Below are positions 9,791-64,000 of a DNA stretch of 64,000 bases, one piece after another. The stretch lies in contig CAYLHT010000003.1 of NCBI GenBank assembly GCA_964383765.1, forward strand, positions 6,328 through 70,327. The letters run 5' to 3'. This stretch comes from an uncultured Gammaproteobacteria bacterium. Its GTDB lineage: Bacteria > Patescibacteriota > Patescibacteriia > SBBC01 > CAIJZX01. The notes under the pieces were generated by a model. That model did no database searches. It saw only the letters and a list, made by a program, of their open reading frames with translations, and was not told where the DNA came from. The number at the start of each line of letters is the position of its first letter. Within the stretch, counting starts at the first letter, position 1. The translations under genes and the position numbers were made by a program.

Positions 9791-11070
9791 GAGTTTCGAA
9801 AAGGATTACGCTTTGGTTGGTAGTACTGTTTTTTCTCAAACTTCGTCGGCAAATACTGTTGCTGTCCTTCGGCCGCTGAAAAGTCATGTGAGTATTTGTA
9901 CCCCTGATGGTAACCGAGTTCTTTCATGAGCTTGGTCGGCGCATTACGCAAGTTGAGTGGTACCGGTTCATTTAAACTGCTTTTTACATCAGCCAAAGCC
10001 GCATCGTACGCTATGTACGTTTCATTCGACTTCGGACACGTCGCTAAGTATACCGCAACATGCGATAAATTGATCGTACATTCTGGTAATCCAACCAGGT
10101 CGCAAGCCTGCATGCACGCCACCGCCAACGGTAATGCATGCACGTCGGCCATGGACACATCTTCCGAAGCAAAAATCACCATCCGCCGCGCGATGAACAA
10201 GGGATCTTCGCCAGCTTCCAACATCCGACCTAACCAGTAGAGTGCTGCATCCGGATTCGAGCCACGCATCGACTTGATGAAAGCTGAAATGACGTTGTAG
10301 TGTTCCTCACCTTTCTTGTCGTACAGTAAATGCGGTTTTTGGAAGGCCTCAGCCACAGTTGTCAACGTAATCTGACGCTGTCCTTTGTCGATCGGCGTCG
10401 CTTTCACCGCTAACTCAAGCGTATTCAAGGCTGTTCGGCCATCACCATTACTGGCAGTGCTCAATAACTCTGAAGCTTTCGGTTCGACGACAATGTTCTG
10501 ACCGGCGTATCCCCGCTCATCGTTGAGAGCCCGAATGATAATCGCCGAGATATTCTCCGGTTGTAATCGTTCCAGCACGAAAACTTTACAGCGCGACAAC
10601 AATGGTGAAATAACTTCAAAACTTGGATTCTCAGTCGTCGCGCCAATCAACGTGACCGTGCCATTTTCAACGTACGGTAACAAGGCATCTTGTTGCGCTT
10701 TATTCCAGCGATGAATTTCGTCCACGAACAGAATCGTACGTTGACGTTTGAATTTGAGAAGGTCTTGCGCAGTTTTCACAGCCCTCAACAAATCATCCTT
10801 GCTGCTCAAGACACCGGACAAACCCACAAATGAGGATTTGGTAAGGCCGGCAATAATCCGTGCCAGCGTGGTTTTCCCGCTACCCGGTGGACCCCAGAGA
10901 ATGATGGAAAACAGCTCGTCGTTCTCAACCGCTTTCCGCAAAATCGTCCCGGGTCCAACCACCTGGGCTTGCCCAACGAACTCATCGAGGGTCCGCGGTC
11001 GTAAACGATCCGCCAACGGAGCCGTGCGGCTTATTTCAGCTTGTCCAACGGCGTCAAACAAATCGTCCAT
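9787..11070 (-). CDS. rarA: Replication-associated recombination protein A (AAA+ ATPase)
   Basis: Walker A ILWGPPGSGKTTLARIIA and MgsA/RarA-like overall length and C-terminal region. Confidence 0.85.
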   Translation of the reverse strand: MDDLFDAVGQAEISRTAPLADRLRPRTLDEFVGQAQVVGPGTILRKAVENDELFSIILWGPPGSGKTTLARIIAGLTKSSFVGLSGVLSSKDDLLRAVKTAQDLLKFKRQRTILFVDEIHRWNKAQQDALLPYVENGTVTLIGATTENPSFEVISPLLSRCKVFVLERLQPENISAIIIRALNDERGYAGQNIVVEPKASELLSTASNGDGRTALNTLELAVKATPIDKGQRQITLTTVAEAFQKPHLLYDKKGEEHYNVISAFIKSMRGSNPDAALYWLGRMLEAGEDPLFIARRMVIFASEDVSMADVHALPLAVACMQACDLVGLPECTINLSHVAVYLATCPKSNETYIAYDAALADVKSSLNEPVPLNLRNAPTKLMKELGYHQGYKYSHDFSAAEGQQQYLPTKFEKKQYYQPKRNPFRNS

Positions 11071-38182: not shown

Positions 38183-39088
38183 ATGCATACGGTGATCATC
38201 ATCCTCGGCCCAACCGCCTCGGGAAAATCGAAACTCGGTGTTCAGCTCGCCAAGAAATTTCACGGTGTGGTGATTTCAGCCGATTCACGACAGGTGTACC
38301 AGGGCTTGAACATCGGGACTGCTAAAATCACGAGAAAAGAAATGAAAGGTGTCCCCCACTTTTTGTTGGATGTCGCCTCACCGAAACGGCAATATACCGT
38401 GTCACACTACATTCGTGATGTTCAGCGGGTGCTGAAAAAAATTCCTGAATCAACGCCGGTGTTCCTCGTCGGTGGTTCACCGTTTTACATTGACGCGGTT
38501 ACCAAACCTCATTCATTCTCACCTGTCCCACCGAACCCCAAACTAAGACAGCGACTTGAGAAAAAATCCATTGCCCAATTGAGAATCATTCTCAAGAAGC
38601 TTGATCGAGCCCGGGCTCGAAACATTGATTGGAATAATAAACGTCGTGTTATTCGCGCTATTGAGGTTGCCTCCACCTCCCCTCTCCCCTCCTTACCGAA
38701 GGAGGGGCGGCCCCCACACCAAAATTTTGGTGTGGGGGCCGGGGTGGTCCTAAAAATCGGCCTTTCCGTCTCCCGCGCAGAACTCTTCCGGCGGATTGAC
38801 CATCAAATTGATCAACGTCTGCGCCACGGGATGATCAGTGAGGTCCAGCGGCTTCACCGCAAAGGAGTTTCTTGGCGGAGGTTGTCAGCATTCGGTCTTG
38901 AATACCGCGAAATCGTGAAGATGCTCAATGGCCAAGCCTCACGAAAAAATCTGTCGACCCGCATGAAATCAGTTACGCACGATTTTGTCCGCCGCCAAAT
39001 GACCTGGTGGAAACGCGATCAGGATATTCACTGGGTGACTACGCCAAAACAAGCAGAAGTGTTCGTCAGTCGCTGGCTACAATCATAG
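38183..39088 (+). CDS. miaA: tRNA dimethylallyltransferase carrying an in-frame ~80-nt palindromic insertion
   Basis: P-loop ILGPTASGKSKL and DSRQVYQGLNIGTAKIT. The insert at 38671-38760 encodes ASTSPLPSLPKEGRPPHQNFGVGAGV. Confidence 0.85.
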   Translation: MHTVIIILGPTASGKSKLGVQLAKKFHGVVISADSRQVYQGLNIGTAKITRKEMKGVPHFLLDVASPKRQYTVSHYIRDVQRVLKKIPESTPVFLVGGSPFYIDAVTKPHSFSPVPPNPKLRQRLEKKSIAQLRIILKKLDRARARNIDWNNKRRVIRAIEVASTSPLPSLPKEGRPPHQNFGVGAGVVLKIGLSVSRAELFRRIDHQIDQRLRHGMISEVQRLHRKGVSWRRLSAFGLEYREIVKMLNGQASRKNLSTRMKSVTHDFVRRQMTWWKRDQDIHWVTTPKQAEVFVSRWLQS

Positions 39089-51132: not shown

Positions 51133-51495
51133 TCAGAACCGCCAGGCCACTCCGTGGTGGTTGGCGCAGCCAGCGGTAATCGCCGACGAGTAGACGTAAT
51201 GACCGTCAGCACACACCGCGGTCGCTCCGGAGGGTTTCACGCCGCGGCGCGAGGTTCCAACTGACATAATGTTGTACACCGGTTTGTAGCTCAACACGCC
51301 CTTGGGTGTCCCCCGACTCAAATACACATATTTGTAGCGGTACACGTAATGACAGCGGTGTGTCACCGAGCTACACACTCGCACCCGGTACTTGACCCGG
51401 TAGGTCGTTGCGTTCGCCGCCTGGGGCAGACTGATGCTCACCAGTGCCAGCAATCCTCCCCAGATGGCGATGTGTCGCACAATAAAGCGTGACAT
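51133..51495 (-). CDS. Small secreted Tyr/Arg/Cys-rich protein (signal peptide)
   Basis: Start trimmed to MSRFIVRH...; hydrophobic signal, then a Y/R/C-rich domain with 4 Cys. Confidence 0.35.
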   Translation of the reverse strand: MSRFIVRHIAIWGGLLALVSISLPQAANATTYRVKYRVRVCSSVTHRCHYVYRYKYVYLSRGTPKGVLSYKPVYNIMSVGTSRRGVKPSGATAVCADGHYVYSSAITAGCANHHGVAWRF

Positions 51496-51812
51496 AGGCA
51501 GGAGGTGCAGTATACCGACCTCATCCAAACTCGCAACCCCCGGGCTTTCCCCAGGGCTGTTTATGGCCTAAAATCAAGTGCGAACTACAAAATCCGGGCA
51601 AGAGCATCTTTATCAACCCACACATATGGCTCGTGCCCAAACCTTTCATTGAGGTCAGTTTTTTGGTAGTTGTGAATCATGTAATCAATGACTCTGCTAG
51701 CATCAAGAGAATCGTCGATGTACCACCGGAAAAATCCACGTTGCCATACATTCCCAGCCGGAAGCGTGCGAGAGAATGTTCCTTTGATTGATCGCATCAA
51801 CTCCCACACCGC

Positions 51813-51834
51813 GGGTGGACTAGAAAGTCCACCC
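51813..51834. repeat. REP hairpin GGGTGGACTAGAAAGTCCACCC (inside the RAYT ORF)
   Basis: Perfect palindrome with a GGACT-AGAA-AGTCC core. Confidence 0.75.
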
Positions 51835-51864
51835 TCTCCCATAAAAATATTCCTCTCCTTGTTA

Positions 51865-51890
51865 GAGCGCGGACTTTCTAGTCCGCGCTC
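51865..51890. repeat. REP hairpin GAGCGCGGACTTTCTAGTCCGCGCTC (inverted partner, inside the RAYT ORF)
   Basis: Same core in the opposite orientation, 30 nt from the first. Confidence 0.75.
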
Positions 51891-52165
51891 AGATACAGAT
51901 GTTGTTACCAGAAGATGAACATGATCTGGCAATATGGCAAAGACCAACGGCGTAAACCCTTTTTGTAGAGATGCCATTCGAATCATAATGTTCAATCGCT
52001 CCGCTAACTTCGGATTGCCAAAAATCGGCCGACGGTTTTTCGTGACGGTAGTGATGAAATACAAATATGGAAAATCGGGGTCGGGCTGGATCATGGATGA
52101 ATGGCCGGCCAAACCACCTAACGCGGACAGTATATCGGATATTTCTTGGTTGTCAATCCTGTGCC

Positions 52166-52191
52166 GAGGGCAGACTGGAAAGTCTGCCCTC
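52166..52191. repeat. REP hairpin GAGGGCAGACTGGAAAGTCTGCCCTC
   Basis: Variant core GACTGGAAAGTC, upstream of the RAYT start. Confidence 0.7.
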
Positions 52192-52217
52192 TACCTCGTG
52201 GTGTTCCCTCTTCGATA

Positions 52218-52243
52218 GAGACCGGACTTTCTAGTCCGGTCTC
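52218..52243. repeat. REP hairpin GAGACCGGACTTTCTAGTCCGGTCTC (inverted partner)
   Basis: Same core in the opposite orientation, forming a second doublet between the RAYT and gyrB. Confidence 0.7.
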
Positions 52244-52270
52244 GGCCGCTAGGCCTGTGGAGCGGTCGGG

Positions 52271-54403
<2,133 letters not shown>

Positions 54404-61186: not shown

Positions 61187-64000
61187 CTATACCGCTCTAA
61201 ATTCGCAAATCTCCCGGTAATCACAAAACTTACACACCATTTCACTCGGTGTAGCTCGGAAATCACCGGAGTGAATTTTTTTGATGGTTGAGCTGACCCA
61301 CTCTTTTGCTGCGGCTGAATCTTTTTCCGTCGGAGTCATTGTCCGCGATTCATTTTCATCAATAAAGTAATACTCGAGCTCCTTCACTTCAGCGTTGAGA
61401 ATATTTGGATCTTGCACGGCCAAGGCGTAAATCAGTAACTGATACTTATCATCTTTTTCGAACTTTTCCTTAACCTTCCCGGTTTTGTAATCCACGATTT
61501 TCACTTCGGGTTTTTCATTGGTTCCACCAATTTGATCAATTCGATCGACAGCTCCATTCACAACAAACTCATCAACTTTCAGATTGAACACTTGTTCTAG
61601 CCTGAGAACATTCGGCATAGCCTTGAGTATTTTCGCATACCACTCGGTCAATGCCTGTTTGCCCTTGTCATAATATTCATTCTTCAATTTCTTTTTCGGA
61701 TACCATTCATCGATAAAGCACCGATCGTACATGGTCAGCAACTCTTCTTCGCTTACAGTTTGACCGTCTTTGGCCCGCTCTTTCCAGAGCGCGAAAAAGT
61801 TGAACAGTGTTTTGTGAACTGACGAACCATACGATAATGCATAGCTCCCCTTCTTCGGAACTTGAAGCACAAAAGCGTAGCGGTATTTCCAGGGACAATC
61901 GTTGTAGGTTGAGAGCTTAGTGAAACTGTATTGTTTTTCACGCGCGACGTACGCAACCACTTCTTTTTTCTGTTTGGGTGTGGGCTTGAATTCACGGGCC
62001 GGTAATGGCAATTTCTTCTCGGCCGCTACGGGTGGTTTCAGTAAACCCAGCTCATACATAAATGCTGACGGTTTTTTCCGACGCTGACCACCGTAATCTT
62101 CGGCTAAGGTAAAAAACACACCGTTCCGAGCCCGCGTGATCGCGACGTACATCAAGCGTCGTTCTTCTTGGACGTGCGCGTCACCCGTGGGTAAGATTTC
62201 ACGTACTAAAGCATCCGGCACTGGAATCGGATCTTTACGATCCATGCCTGGAAAGCGCTGTTCGACAACATTACCGATAAACACGTATGGAAATTCGAGT
62301 CCTTTGGCCGAATGGATCGTCATAATTTTGATTGTGTCCGGCCCGGACGATTCCAGGTCATGCTCAAGTCCGCCGGCGTCACCTGACTCAGTGACATGGT
62401 CAATGTATTTCAGAAACGATTTGACCGTCGCTGGCCGTTCACCTTGTTGAAAAGTTTCAATAACTTTAAAGAGTTGTTTCAAGTAACTTGTCTGTTCATG
62501 CGTTTCCGCGGTTTCTTTTTTCGTAATCTCTTGCAAATATCCAGAATCATTCAGGAATTGGAGGAGTACTTCACCAACAGATTTTGTGTTGGCTAACTCA
62601 GTGTGAGCCTGAATTAGGCTTTTGATTTTTTTGACGCCGGCCCGAGTTGCATCGGAAATAGTGATGTCATCATGCAGCAATTGCTCATACAACGACCGAT
62701 TTTTCTTTTTGGCTTGATAGGAAAGTTCGACGACATCACCGTGATCAATCCCGAACACTGGAATAGCCAGTACGCGATACAACGCCGCGCTTTCGTGATA
62801 ATTATCAAGCAACCGTAAATACGCTAACAGGTCGATCACCAACGGTTTCGTGAATAATCCCCGCGCCGCTAAGAACACGTGCGGCATTCCCCGACGTTCG
62901 AATTCATTGATAAAAATTTGGGCGTGATCGTTGGCACGAACCAAAACACAAAATGAATCCCAACCCACGACGTTCCCCTCCTTGTCTAAGGAGGGGTGGC
63001 CGGAGGCCGGGGTGGTCAGGGCGCGCGATCGAAGTTCCTCAACCTTATCCGCCACCGCGCGTGCCTCCGCCTCTTGTGTATCAACATGAATCACGCCGAT
63101 CTCCCCATTTCCCTCTCGCTGCGCCTTCAATTTCTTCACAATCGCCATGCCGCCGAACAGTTCTTTCTTCGCTTCCAATCGGTCCGGATTATTATGTTGG
63201 ATAAAGGTATGGGCTAAATCGAGAATCGACTGCTTGGTTCGATAGTTTTTCGTGAGTACAATCACTTCGGCGTCGGCAAAGTCCTTTTTGAATTCAAGGA
63301 TATTTGACACAGATGCTCCACGAAACTTATAGATCGATTGGTCATCATCACCGACCACGGTCAAATTGTTCCGTGGCTTGGCTAGACGTTTAATCAACTC
63401 GTACTGCGCCCAGTTCGTGTCTTGGAATTCGTCAACCAGAATGTATTGGAATTGCTGCTGGTATTTTTTGAGAATTGCCGGCCGTTCGCGCAACAAACGT
63501 AACGTGTACAAGATCAGGTCACCAAAGTCTAAGGCGTTGTTATCGAGCAATAATTGATTGTATGTATCATAGGCTTTTGCAAGTTCCATTATTCGGGCGG
63601 CCTCAGCTTTCTCTTCGTCAGTAGTTTTGTTTTTCGACAGAGTCTTTGCGTATTTCAAATATTCCGCCGGTGAAATGTCTTCATCTTTAAGTCGCGAAAA
63701 ATGTTTGACCAGCGCGGTAATGAATTTCGTCGGATTCCCAAGCGGGCGATAATAGTCCAAATCAAAGTCATCAAGATGTTCCCGAATCAATAGCCACTGG
63801 TCGGTTTGGGACAACAACTTGAAGTCATTCGACAACCCAATATCGAGTGCGTGTTCTTTCAGTAACCGCTGTCCAAGGCTGTGAAATGTCATCACCCATA
63901 GATCAACATACCCAAACGGTAAAATCCGCTCGACCCGATCCTGCATTTCACCGGCAGCTTTATTGGTAAACGTCAACGCTAAAATATTATCCGACGGCAC
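61187..64000 (-). CDS. UvrD/PcrA-family ATP-dependent helicase fused to a C-terminal PD-(D/E)XK/Cas4-like nuclease domain with a Cys cluster; N-terminus lies beyond the window end. Carries an in-frame palindromic insertion.
   Basis: Helicase motifs (LALTFTNKAAGEM, ILVDEFQDTN, VVGDDDQSIY, TIHSAKGLEF), a C-terminal ...CKFCDYREIC Fe-S-like cluster, and the insert at 62970-63025. Confidence 0.75.
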   Translation of the reverse strand: MPSDNILALTFTNKAAGEMQDRVERILPFGYVDLWVMTFHSLGQRLLKEHALDIGLSNDFKLLSQTDQWLLIREHLDDFDLDYYRPLGNPTKFITALVKHFSRLKDEDISPAEYLKYAKTLSKNKTTDEEKAEAARIMELAKAYDTYNQLLLDNNALDFGDLILYTLRLLRERPAILKKYQQQFQYILVDEFQDTNWAQYELIKRLAKPRNNLTVVGDDDQSIYKFRGASVSNILEFKKDFADAEVIVLTKNYRTKQSILDLAHTFIQHNNPDRLEAKKELFGGMAIVKKLKAQREGNGEIGVIHVDTQEAEARAVADKVEELRSRALTTPASGHPSLDKEGNVVGWDSFCVLVRANDHAQIFINEFERRGMPHVFLAARGLFTKPLVIDLLAYLRLLDNYHESAALYRVLAIPVFGIDHGDVVELSYQAKKKNRSLYEQLLHDDITISDATRAGVKKIKSLIQAHTELANTKSVGEVLLQFLNDSGYLQEITKKETAETHEQTSYLKQLFKVIETFQQGERPATVKSFLKYIDHVTESGDAGGLEHDLESSGPDTIKIMTIHSAKGLEFPYVFIGNVVEQRFPGMDRKDPIPVPDALVREILPTGDAHVQEERRLMYVAITRARNGVFFTLAEDYGGQRRKKPSAFMYELGLLKPPVAAEKKLPLPAREFKPTPKQKKEVVAYVAREKQYSFTKLSTYNDCPWKYRYAFVLQVPKKGSYALSYGSSVHKTLFNFFALWKERAKDGQTVSEEELLTMYDRCFIDEWYPKKKLKNEYYDKGKQALTEWYAKILKAMPNVLRLEQVFNLKVDEFVVNGAVDRIDQIGGTNEKPEVKIVDYKTGKVKEKFEKDDKYQLLIYALAVQDPNILNAEVKELEYYFIDENESRTMTPTEKDSAAAKEWVSSTIKKIHSGDFRATPSEMVCKFCDYREICEFRAV

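Follow-up and report, generated by a model that had tools for sequence, protein, structure and literature searches.

Downstream of gyrB, in a 64,000-nt stretch of contig CAYLHT010000003.1 assigned to the Patescibacteria (the window), lies a gene for a REP-associated tyrosine transposase (RAYT). It is accompanied by four hairpins resembling repetitive extragenic palindromic (REP) sequences, one pair lying between gyrB and the gene and the other inside the gene's own reading frame. RAYTs are transposases that act on single-stranded DNA and have been domesticated.

The RAYT gene and its four hairpins

The open reading frame (ORF) can be read from TTG 52112 (51585..52112, minus strand, 175 aa) or from ATG 52094. 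The latter is probably the true start, because the 100% identical database protein P0001 is 169 aa long (L and P labels denote loci and proteins of the comparison set, for which 160 homologous loci were fetched). Residue numbers follow the 175-aa form unless 169-aa numbering is stated. A preliminary description, made from the letters of the window alone, had taken the product for a RAYT with an HUH motif, and profile and fold comparisons agreed with this. Pfam Y1_Tnp matched with E 7.5e-8 (33 bits, cut-off 23), covering residues 18–72 only. NCBIfam REP_Tyr_transpos gave 66.1 bits (cut-off 80) in two stretches divided by the insertion discussed below, which probably accounts for the sub-cut-off score, while the NCBIfam IS200 profile gave 27.3 bits (cut-off 55). 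A family profile compared with the PDB matched Escherichia coli TnpA_REP (4ER8) first. The AlphaFold2 model had a mean predicted local distance difference test score (pLDDT) of 84.6, with the core above 90, and in a Foldseek search of the PDB 4er8_A came top (E 5.4e-8), followed by the TnpA proteins of ISDra2 and IS608. H64, H66, W123 and Y144 are invariant across 21 aligned sequences and N148 is nearly so; in a second set of 17 sequences this asparagine (N142 in 169-aa numbering) is invariant. Judged by sequence and predicted fold, the ORF encodes a RAYT-type Y1 HUH protein with an intact catalytic set, and the gene, the single RAYT copy within the window, looks functional. A promoter-like site lies between the upstream hairpins and the gene, 35 nt before ATG 52094.

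Table 1. Features of the locus and of a second repeat family in the window
Feature	Position (nt)	Strand	Description or basis
RAYT (TnpA_REP-like Y1 HUH nuclease) gene	51585..52094	-	169 aa from ATG 52094; profiles, homologues, fold
HUH motif PDHVHLL (H64/H66)	51915-51923	-	within RAYT gene
WQ motif (W123-Q124, in WQRGFF)	51741-51746	-	within RAYT gene
Catalytic Tyr144 (Y144...N148)	51681-51683	-	within RAYT gene
REP-encoded insertion, β3(HuH)-αC loop, residues ~72-101	51810..51899	-	pLDDT; no 4ER8 counterpart
Internal REP 2 (GGLSSPP)	51813-51834	-	GGGTGGACT-AGAA-AGTCCACCC; 9-bp perfect stem
Internal REP 1 (ERGLESPRS)	51865-51890	+	GAGCGCGGACT-TTCT-AGTCCGCGCTC; 11-bp perfect stem
Upstream REP	52166-52191 (with foot 52166..52194)	-	GAGGGCAGACT-GGAA-AGTCTGCCCTC; 11-bp stem
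Upstream REP	52218-52243	+	GAGACCGGACT-TTCT-AGTCCGGTCTC; 11-bp stem
Sigma-70-like promoter TTGACA-16-TATACT	52129..52156	-	consensus match only, 11/12 positions
gyrB, upstream neighbour and synteny anchor	52271..54340	-	ORF list; stop at 52271
Different repeat, first copy	38686-38757		in frame inside miaA (38183..39088 +)
Different repeat, second copy	62975-63015		in frame inside UvrD/PcrA-like helicase gene (61187..64000 -)

The hairpins are 22–26 nt long, within the 20–40 nt expected of a REP, with perfect stems of 9–11 bp and 4-nt loops, and form two inverted pairs with spacers of 26 and 30 nt, all four within 450 bp. One pair sits between the gyrB stop and the RAYT promoter, as expected from the preliminary description of a doublet just upstream of the RAYT start. 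The arrangement as two inverted doublets also held, all four palindromes being perfect; the core said to be common to them did not, as GGACTAGAAAGTCC occurs in three of the four only. The remaining hairpin has AGACTGGAAAGTCT (AGACT...AGTCT), a compensated change from G-C to A-T. Allowing at most one mismatch, the 14-mer had 3 matches vs 0.08 expected (none of 100 shuffles reached 3), and the short core GACTNGAAAGTC is confined to these four sites within the window. Folded as single-stranded DNA, each pair forms two hairpins (-25 to -27 kcal/mol, z -6.2 to -9.1).

Each hairpin presents a TTCY loop on one strand, and a short foot precedes the stem on that strand. Internal REP 2 (loop TTCT, minus strand) has a degenerate foot, GGAG, and internal REP 1 (TTCT, plus strand) has TTAG at 51862–51865. 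The upstream REP at 52166–52191 (TTCC, minus strand) has the canonical 5′ foot GTAG (52194→52191), and its partner at 52218–52243 (TTCT, plus strand) has ATAG at 52215–52218. Against the REP tetranucleotide GT[AG]G, one foot of the four is exact (GTAG) and the other three are one base off.

The internal pair is translated without a break in frame, as had been described, its hairpins encoding E75–S83 (ERGLESPRS) and G94–P100 (GGLSSPP). Profile positions 67–110 align opposite residues 64–76 only of 4ER8, which leaves ~25–30 extra aa relative to E. coli TnpA_REP, a length consistent with the 78-nt internal hairpin pair. In the AlphaFold2 model, pLDDT falls below 50 for residues 76–95 and the disordered stretch spans residues 72–101. 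The hairpin-encoded peptide of ~30 aa is thus predicted to be a disordered surface loop between the HuH strand and helix αC. We considered, and rejected, the possibility that ER.LE / GGLS.PP is a protein-level motif: the residues co-vary as base pairing requires (G..P, T..V, I..M, A..A), and the predicted disorder and the presence of identical hairpins in non-coding DNA also counter it.

Covariation and strand polarity of the hairpins

Fifty-four hairpins were aligned on the strand where the loop reads YTCN. In this alignment 97.1% of cells were paired, a percentage that is partly built in because the hairpins had been chosen for pairing; the strength of the result lies in covariation and hairpin position rather than in the percentage paired. 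Changes had occurred on both sides at eight of the nine stem pairs. Compensatory cells numbered 141, vs 44 in shuffles, and none of 500 shuffles reached 141; sliding the partner by 1–3 columns reduced pairing to 21–48%. Invariant throughout were the closing T-A pair and, in the loop, T15 and C16.

The sequence next to the stem is equally one-sided. A conserved foot, TAGAG/CAGAG/ACAG, occurs solely on the 5′ side of the TTCY-loop strand. In the group to which the window belongs it reads TAGAG/CAGAG, preceded by G in most cases (GTAG five times, GCAG six, TTAG twice, ATAG once), and in deeper branches it is ACAG/CCAG. Single stem mismatches read on the TTCY-loop strand were G.T in ~12 cases vs 2, and within each pair the TTCY loop of one hairpin lies on the strand opposite to that of the other, with both feet toward the spacer. 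Foot, loop and wobble pattern thus agree, at the level of sequence, on one active strand per hairpin in the architecture of a bacterial interspersed mosaic element (BIME) or of a REPIN, an inverted REP pair. This polarity argues for recognition as folded single-stranded DNA rather than as mRNA.

We regard it as improbable that the internal hairpins act in the message, by slowing translation, stabilizing the mRNA or attenuating expression of the nuclease. Both are very stable and would form in RNA too, a strong promoter-like site lies upstream, and IS200 limits transposase synthesis through RNA structure. Nevertheless, the hairpins of the pair are mirror images whose loop and foot read correctly on opposite strands, so that only one can be 'correct' in mRNA. 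Where hairpin 1 has a single mismatch, this reads A.C in the sense strand and becomes G.T only in the antisense strand. Identical hairpins also occur before the promoter and beyond stop codons. A permissive Rfam scan of 51300–52500 returned just chance-level miRNA/sRNA matches far below gathering scores, hence no known RNA family, and a terminator scan found none at the hairpins and no terminator-like T-tract.

Within a locus, the loop-proximal stem is common to all hairpins, whether internal, upstream or, in some genomes, at the stop codon or past it (GGACT in the window; TTCT in L004, L005 and L084; ACGTT in L090 and L112), as expected if one co-evolving protein reads them all. This bears on a neutral explanation, in which the internal palindromes are mere passengers, trapped because their removal would damage the gene, and are kept perfect by template switching within quasi-palindromes or by gene conversion between the hairpins of the locus rather than by enzyme recognition or selection. 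Such an origin would suit a disordered, variable peptide, a spacer of free length and the lineages in which the pair has fused (L012, P0052, P0060) or been lost, and Quentin et al. (PMC6006769) see little impact of such insertions. We nevertheless think it unlikely. It does not explain why T15, C16 and the closing T-A pair are invariant, why the one-sided foot is conserved, or why the upstream non-coding hairpins have the same features. Nor would passengers be expected to have a loop-proximal stem that is lineage-specific yet shared across the locus, or to persist as a pair across proteins just 30–35% identical.

Age, inheritance and distribution

All 20 of the closest homologues (39–58% identity; Kerfeldbacteria and other Patescibacteria) carry ER.LE..R.....GGLS.PP at the same site. 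In the genes of the Patescibacteria clade that were scored, a hairpin with the sense-strand loop NGAR is present, followed in most by a YTCN-loop hairpin 20–130 nt further on. The stems themselves are unrelated between genomes, for example CAGGGCATTCT/GGGTGCTCT in L004 and GCGCGCCTT/GCGCGGGCT in L013. Of 35 internal hairpins scored, 33 have the loop in the same codon phase. Spacer length varies freely among relatives. By tblastn, the order gyrB, REP hairpins, RAYT recurs in L002 (gyrB 83% and RAYT 51% identical to the window) and L003 (80% and 46%), with the RAYT gene downstream of gyrB in the same orientation as in the window; L002 is syntenic with the window over ~20 kb, and L003 is also syntenic. 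The same site in all homologues, the synteny and the compensated divergence of the stems indicate that the insertion is ancient. We conclude from these sequence comparisons that it is ancestral, long-lived and maintained, although reducible or losable.

The preliminary description had read the internal pair as a sign of recent REP mobility, and the same data contradict this. It is scarcely credible that an active REP or REPIN lately transposed into its own RAYT gene, with the frame kept by chance and mobility continuing. The GGACT/AGACT core and loop common to the window's four hairpins might suggest this, as might the ability of the two internal REPs to pair mutually as a long REPIN-like hairpin; yet the same pair, at the same site and in the same orientation, is found in every one of the 20 homologues and in syntenic genomes, in a nearly constant codon phase, with stems that have diverged by compensatory changes, and no other copy lies within the 64 kb.

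In a rough neighbour-joining ordering, the pair is carried by most of the YIxxNY clade, and P0052, P0060 and L012 have one fused hairpin instead. Farther relatives (Anaerolineae and others; DHIH/YIHYNP, 2.2-like) have the canonical loop of 15–16 aa and no hairpins. A library-wide profile search returned 51 clusters at E ≤ 1e-30, a number that rose to 510 at E ≤ 1e-10. In L012 (10172–10203) the internal REPs look fused into a 14-bp hairpin, TCCAAGCGCGGGTT-TTGA-AACCCGCGCTTGGA, with an in-frame TGA in the loop and the remainder of the gene in another frame; this RAYT is probably a pseudogene that arose by a central deletion between the REP pair. We also considered whether the upstream pair in the window is a remnant of a decayed tandem RAYT copy, and rejected this, as there is no residual coding similarity and the hairpins (52 nt apart) are out of frame.

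The window from 40000 to 64000 shows long-range synteny with Patescibacteria metagenome-assembled genomes (MAGs; L002, L001, L003 and L081), and the RAYT gene is among the fastest evolving of the syntenic block (46–62% identity vs 70–94% for several neighbours). A few genomes hold two or three copies. L001 has tandem RAYT genes (110–748 and 1758–2438), 45% identical, each with an internal REP pair, and an additional REP pair at 1701–1780 between them; L005, L006 and L015 come from one MAG. Such multiplicity, together with a fold common to IS608 and ISDra2 TnpA, is what an autonomous IS200/IS605-type insertion sequence would show, the hairpins then being its subterminal left-end and right-end structures. 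We consider this very improbable: the protein scores 27 bits with the NCBIfam IS200 profile vs 66 with the RAYT profile and has Y...N, not Y...Q; the hairpins are inverted pairs on both strands rather than ends on the same strand; the chromosomal position is conserved across genomes, and copies within one genome are only 38–45% identical. No tnpB was seen in a comparison limited to window ORFs and the loci.

Loop-matched hairpins number 81 in 336 kb, vs 11–19 after shuffling; with few exceptions the good ones are situated in a RAYT gene or within 400 nt of it. Dispersed related REPs are present in the farther loci L014, L078 and L080 of the candidate phyla radiation (CPR). At the locus itself, two of the four hairpins are not extragenic, being translated inside the RAYT ORF.

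Placement varies among relatives. In the deep branch of L090 (10212–10229, 10567–10584) and L112 (887–904, 1208–1225) the second REP lies outside the gene, just past its stop, and has the same stem (GCACGTT) as the internal REP; the two thus enclose the 3′ half of the gene, with the codon for the catalytic Tyr. In L112 there are, in addition, four half-REP repeats in tandem that encode PQPRTPFF. A third REP lies over or after the stop codon in L084 (10506–10529), L005 (10542–10563), L085 (1611–1638) and L081 (660–677); the proteins of the Kerfeldbacteria-like group owe their C-terminal ...ILERML* to it. Peribacteria relatives (L059, L064 (= L153), L070, L075, L078, L080, L128, L147, L159) have a single long 'double-foot' hairpin of 9–15 bp with GTAG/GCAG...CTAC/CTGC feet, ~100 nt past the HuH codons (e.g. 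CCGTAGCGGAAGAT-CGCC-ATCTTCCGCTACGG). Similar hairpins flank the gene there, and others lie a few kilobases off (L080 at 11688, 11758 and 13952; L078 at 1973 and 12522).

Two other palindromic elements were met. The first, of ~36–57 nt, reads (T/C)CACCGCC-NNN-GGCGGGA-TCCCGCC-about 20 nt-GGCGGGA and occurs in L005 (10191–10244), L002 (10254–10289, = L083 442–477), L001 (~2140–2190), L007 (~10305–10365) and L014 (10206–10256, 1449–1500, 4871–4928 and 12872–12906). It is placed exactly in the 4-nt REP loop (CTGG^...^AAAG), always oriented the same way with respect to the REP strand. Where it lies inside a RAYT gene the frame is kept, giving the peptide GGIP.F.EMN.CGGKR (P0018, P0016), and L014 has more copies, within the loops of further palindromes of the GTAG type. 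A miniature element that targets REP loops is one possible explanation, a long-loop REP variant another. The second is a different repeat of the window (Table 1), CCCCTCCTT-N4-AAGGAGGGG followed by a GGCC...GGCC hairpin and GGGTGGTC, with two copies vs 0 expected and no copy among the 160 fetched loci. Its helicase copy coincides with ~13–29 extra residues relative to PcrA. An insertion in MiaA is not clear, as the protein is only ~4 aa longer than its Staphylococcus epidermidis homologue, and a relationship to the RAYT REPs was rejected because loop and foot differ.

Interpretation and comparison with known systems

We think it likely that the locus is a Patescibacteria (CPR) REPtron, a vertically inherited RAYT with four cognate REPs in two inverted BIME/REPIN-like pairs. 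An ancestor of this RAYT clade acquired the internal pair within its reading frame, in the β3–αC surface loop, with the catalytic core left intact, and the pair has since been kept at the same site, nearly always in the same codon phase, while its stems changed by compensatory substitutions. By analogy with TnpA_REP biochemistry, the enzyme may bind the TTCY-loop strand of the folded hairpins strand-specifically, reading mainly the loop and upper stem. Binding would take place when the DNA is single-stranded, on the lagging-strand template or in a transcription bubble, with cleavage and rejoining nearby. The internal REPs may persist because the enzyme still recognizes them and co-evolves with them, and because in a permissive loop they do no harm.

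Several points weigh against this interpretation. No hairpin copies were found outside the locus within the window, nor in the ±10 kb flanks of close relatives, so that the hairpins of this genome are only putatively 'repetitive', as the definition of a REP requires. Just one foot in four is an exact GTAG, the REP_Tyr_transpos score is below its cut-off (66 vs 80 bits), and the pairing percentage is, as noted, partly built in. The G.T asymmetry is only suggestive support for strand polarity, as the events are few and partly related. A nested group (P0044, P0049, P0057, P0080) has a clean 15-aa loop without the insertion, and so loss, or repeated gain at a preferred site, does occur.

A more demanding proposal, which we also hold to be unlikely, is that in the streamlined genomes of Patescibacteria the RAYT–REP system has shrunk to a self-contained module, whose sole substrates are the hairpins of its own locus and whose intragenic pair is a functional cis-element. 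If so, the pair would serve, for example, in autoregulation or in nicking and rejoining of its own locus coupled to replication, and selection would act on DNA secondary structure within a coding sequence over deep time. The precise losses and the second element in fixed orientation would then be signs of ongoing enzyme-mediated excision and insertion. The interest of the locus would rise if whole-genome data showed locus-bound hairpins to be the enzyme's only substrates.

The locus extends the known 'REPs inside a RAYT gene' arrangement to the Patescibacteria/CPR, and in this lineage the intragenic pair is long-lived and structurally maintained, with clear strand polarity, rather than a transient accident. 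It offers a compact natural system, with a 169-aa enzyme, four putative substrates within 450 bp and many co-varying orthologues, that could be used to work out the rules of REP recognition and to probe the function of intragenic REPs. It also carries a point for annotation: the insertion divides the profile match, and such genes consequently score under the curated cut-offs for RAYTs.

The preliminary description had called a RAYT with its own REPs in frame unusual. The arrangement is already known from related genes: in-frame REPs in the β3:αC loop have been described for TnpA_REP genes of subclass 2.4, and their impact was judged to be little (Quentin, Siguier, Chandler & Fichant 2018, PMC6006769). 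What is new here is a member in a Patescibacteria/CPR lineage; our literature search found no paper linking RAYTs to CPR. Subclass 2.4, which corresponds to RAYT group 4 of Bertels et al. (2017), shares with the window locus and its relatives the variable β3–αC insertion derived from in-frame REPs, the WQ motif, perfect stems with a GGG/GAG start, a foot of the G(T/C)AG type, 'double-foot' fused forms and intragenomic copies ~40% identical. One REP from Table S1 of that survey, GTAGAGACGCGA-TACA-TCGCGTCTCTC (PMC6006769), closely resembles GTAGAGGGCAGACT-TTCC-AGTCTGCCCTC of the window.

There are also differences from subclass 2.4. Its signature (Table 1 of PMC6006769) is NH[IFV]H / WQ / YIxNNP, whereas the window protein has DHVH / WQ / YMIHNY, and its clade DH[VL]H (N in 4) and YIxxNY. 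The 8-aa insertion at the end of αB in subclass 2.4 was not seen in the window protein by comparison with 4ER8, profile positions 14–66 aligning to 4ER8 residues 12–63 with a one-residue difference. The Patescibacteria host was not reported by the 2018 survey; the insertion in this clade is a constant inverted pair with a conserved loop rather than highly variable, and no dispersed REP copies were seen in the 64-kb window or in the flanks of close relatives. Given the motifs and the missing αB insertion, strict membership of 2.4 does not apply. The exact 2.4 signature does occur in relatives within profile reach (P0072, with NHVH, WQ and YIRNNP, profile ~E 1e-27; P0079, L090 and L112), and the clade may therefore be a divergent Patescibacteria branch of the 2.4 radiation.

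E. coli TnpA_REP (YafM; 4ER8; Ton-Hoang 2012, Messing 2012) is the best match in both sequence and fold, and shares the HUH, Tyr and Asn residues, a folded single-stranded hairpin with a 5′ GTAG-type foot as substrate (putative for the window protein), and inverted REP pairs beside the gene. E. coli REPs, in contrast, are imperfect with a bulge, strictly extragenic and present in hundreds, whereas the stems here are perfect and one pair is intragenic. The residues that contact GTAG after WQ in the E. coli protein are not conserved in the window protein. Strand-specific recognition of folded single-stranded REPs has been shown for TnpA_REP, and where the REP is a perfect palindrome this depends critically on single positions of the loop (Corneloup et al. 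2021, PMC8266576), which fits the invariant loop of the hairpins here; the location of the conserved positions in the loop resembles the strategy of group 3 in that study.

REPINs (Bertels & Rainey 2011) likewise consist of inverted REPs with a short spacer, beside a RAYT that is inherited vertically and has one or a few divergent copies per genome. They differ in forming populations of tens to hundreds, vs two locus-bound pairs only here, and in most relatives the REPs of a pair cannot pair mutually. TnpA of IS200/IS605 (subclass 1.1) has the same Y1 HUH fold and acts on single-stranded hairpins with a 5′ guide tetranucleotide, but with Y...Q, same-strand ends, many near-identical copies and often tnpB, none of which was found here. 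Rickettsia palindromic elements also lie in frame within protein-coding genes, where they are tolerated as surface peptides. They are scattered over many unrelated genes, however, and come without a Y1 nuclease of their own, whereas here the host gene is the cognate nuclease itself.

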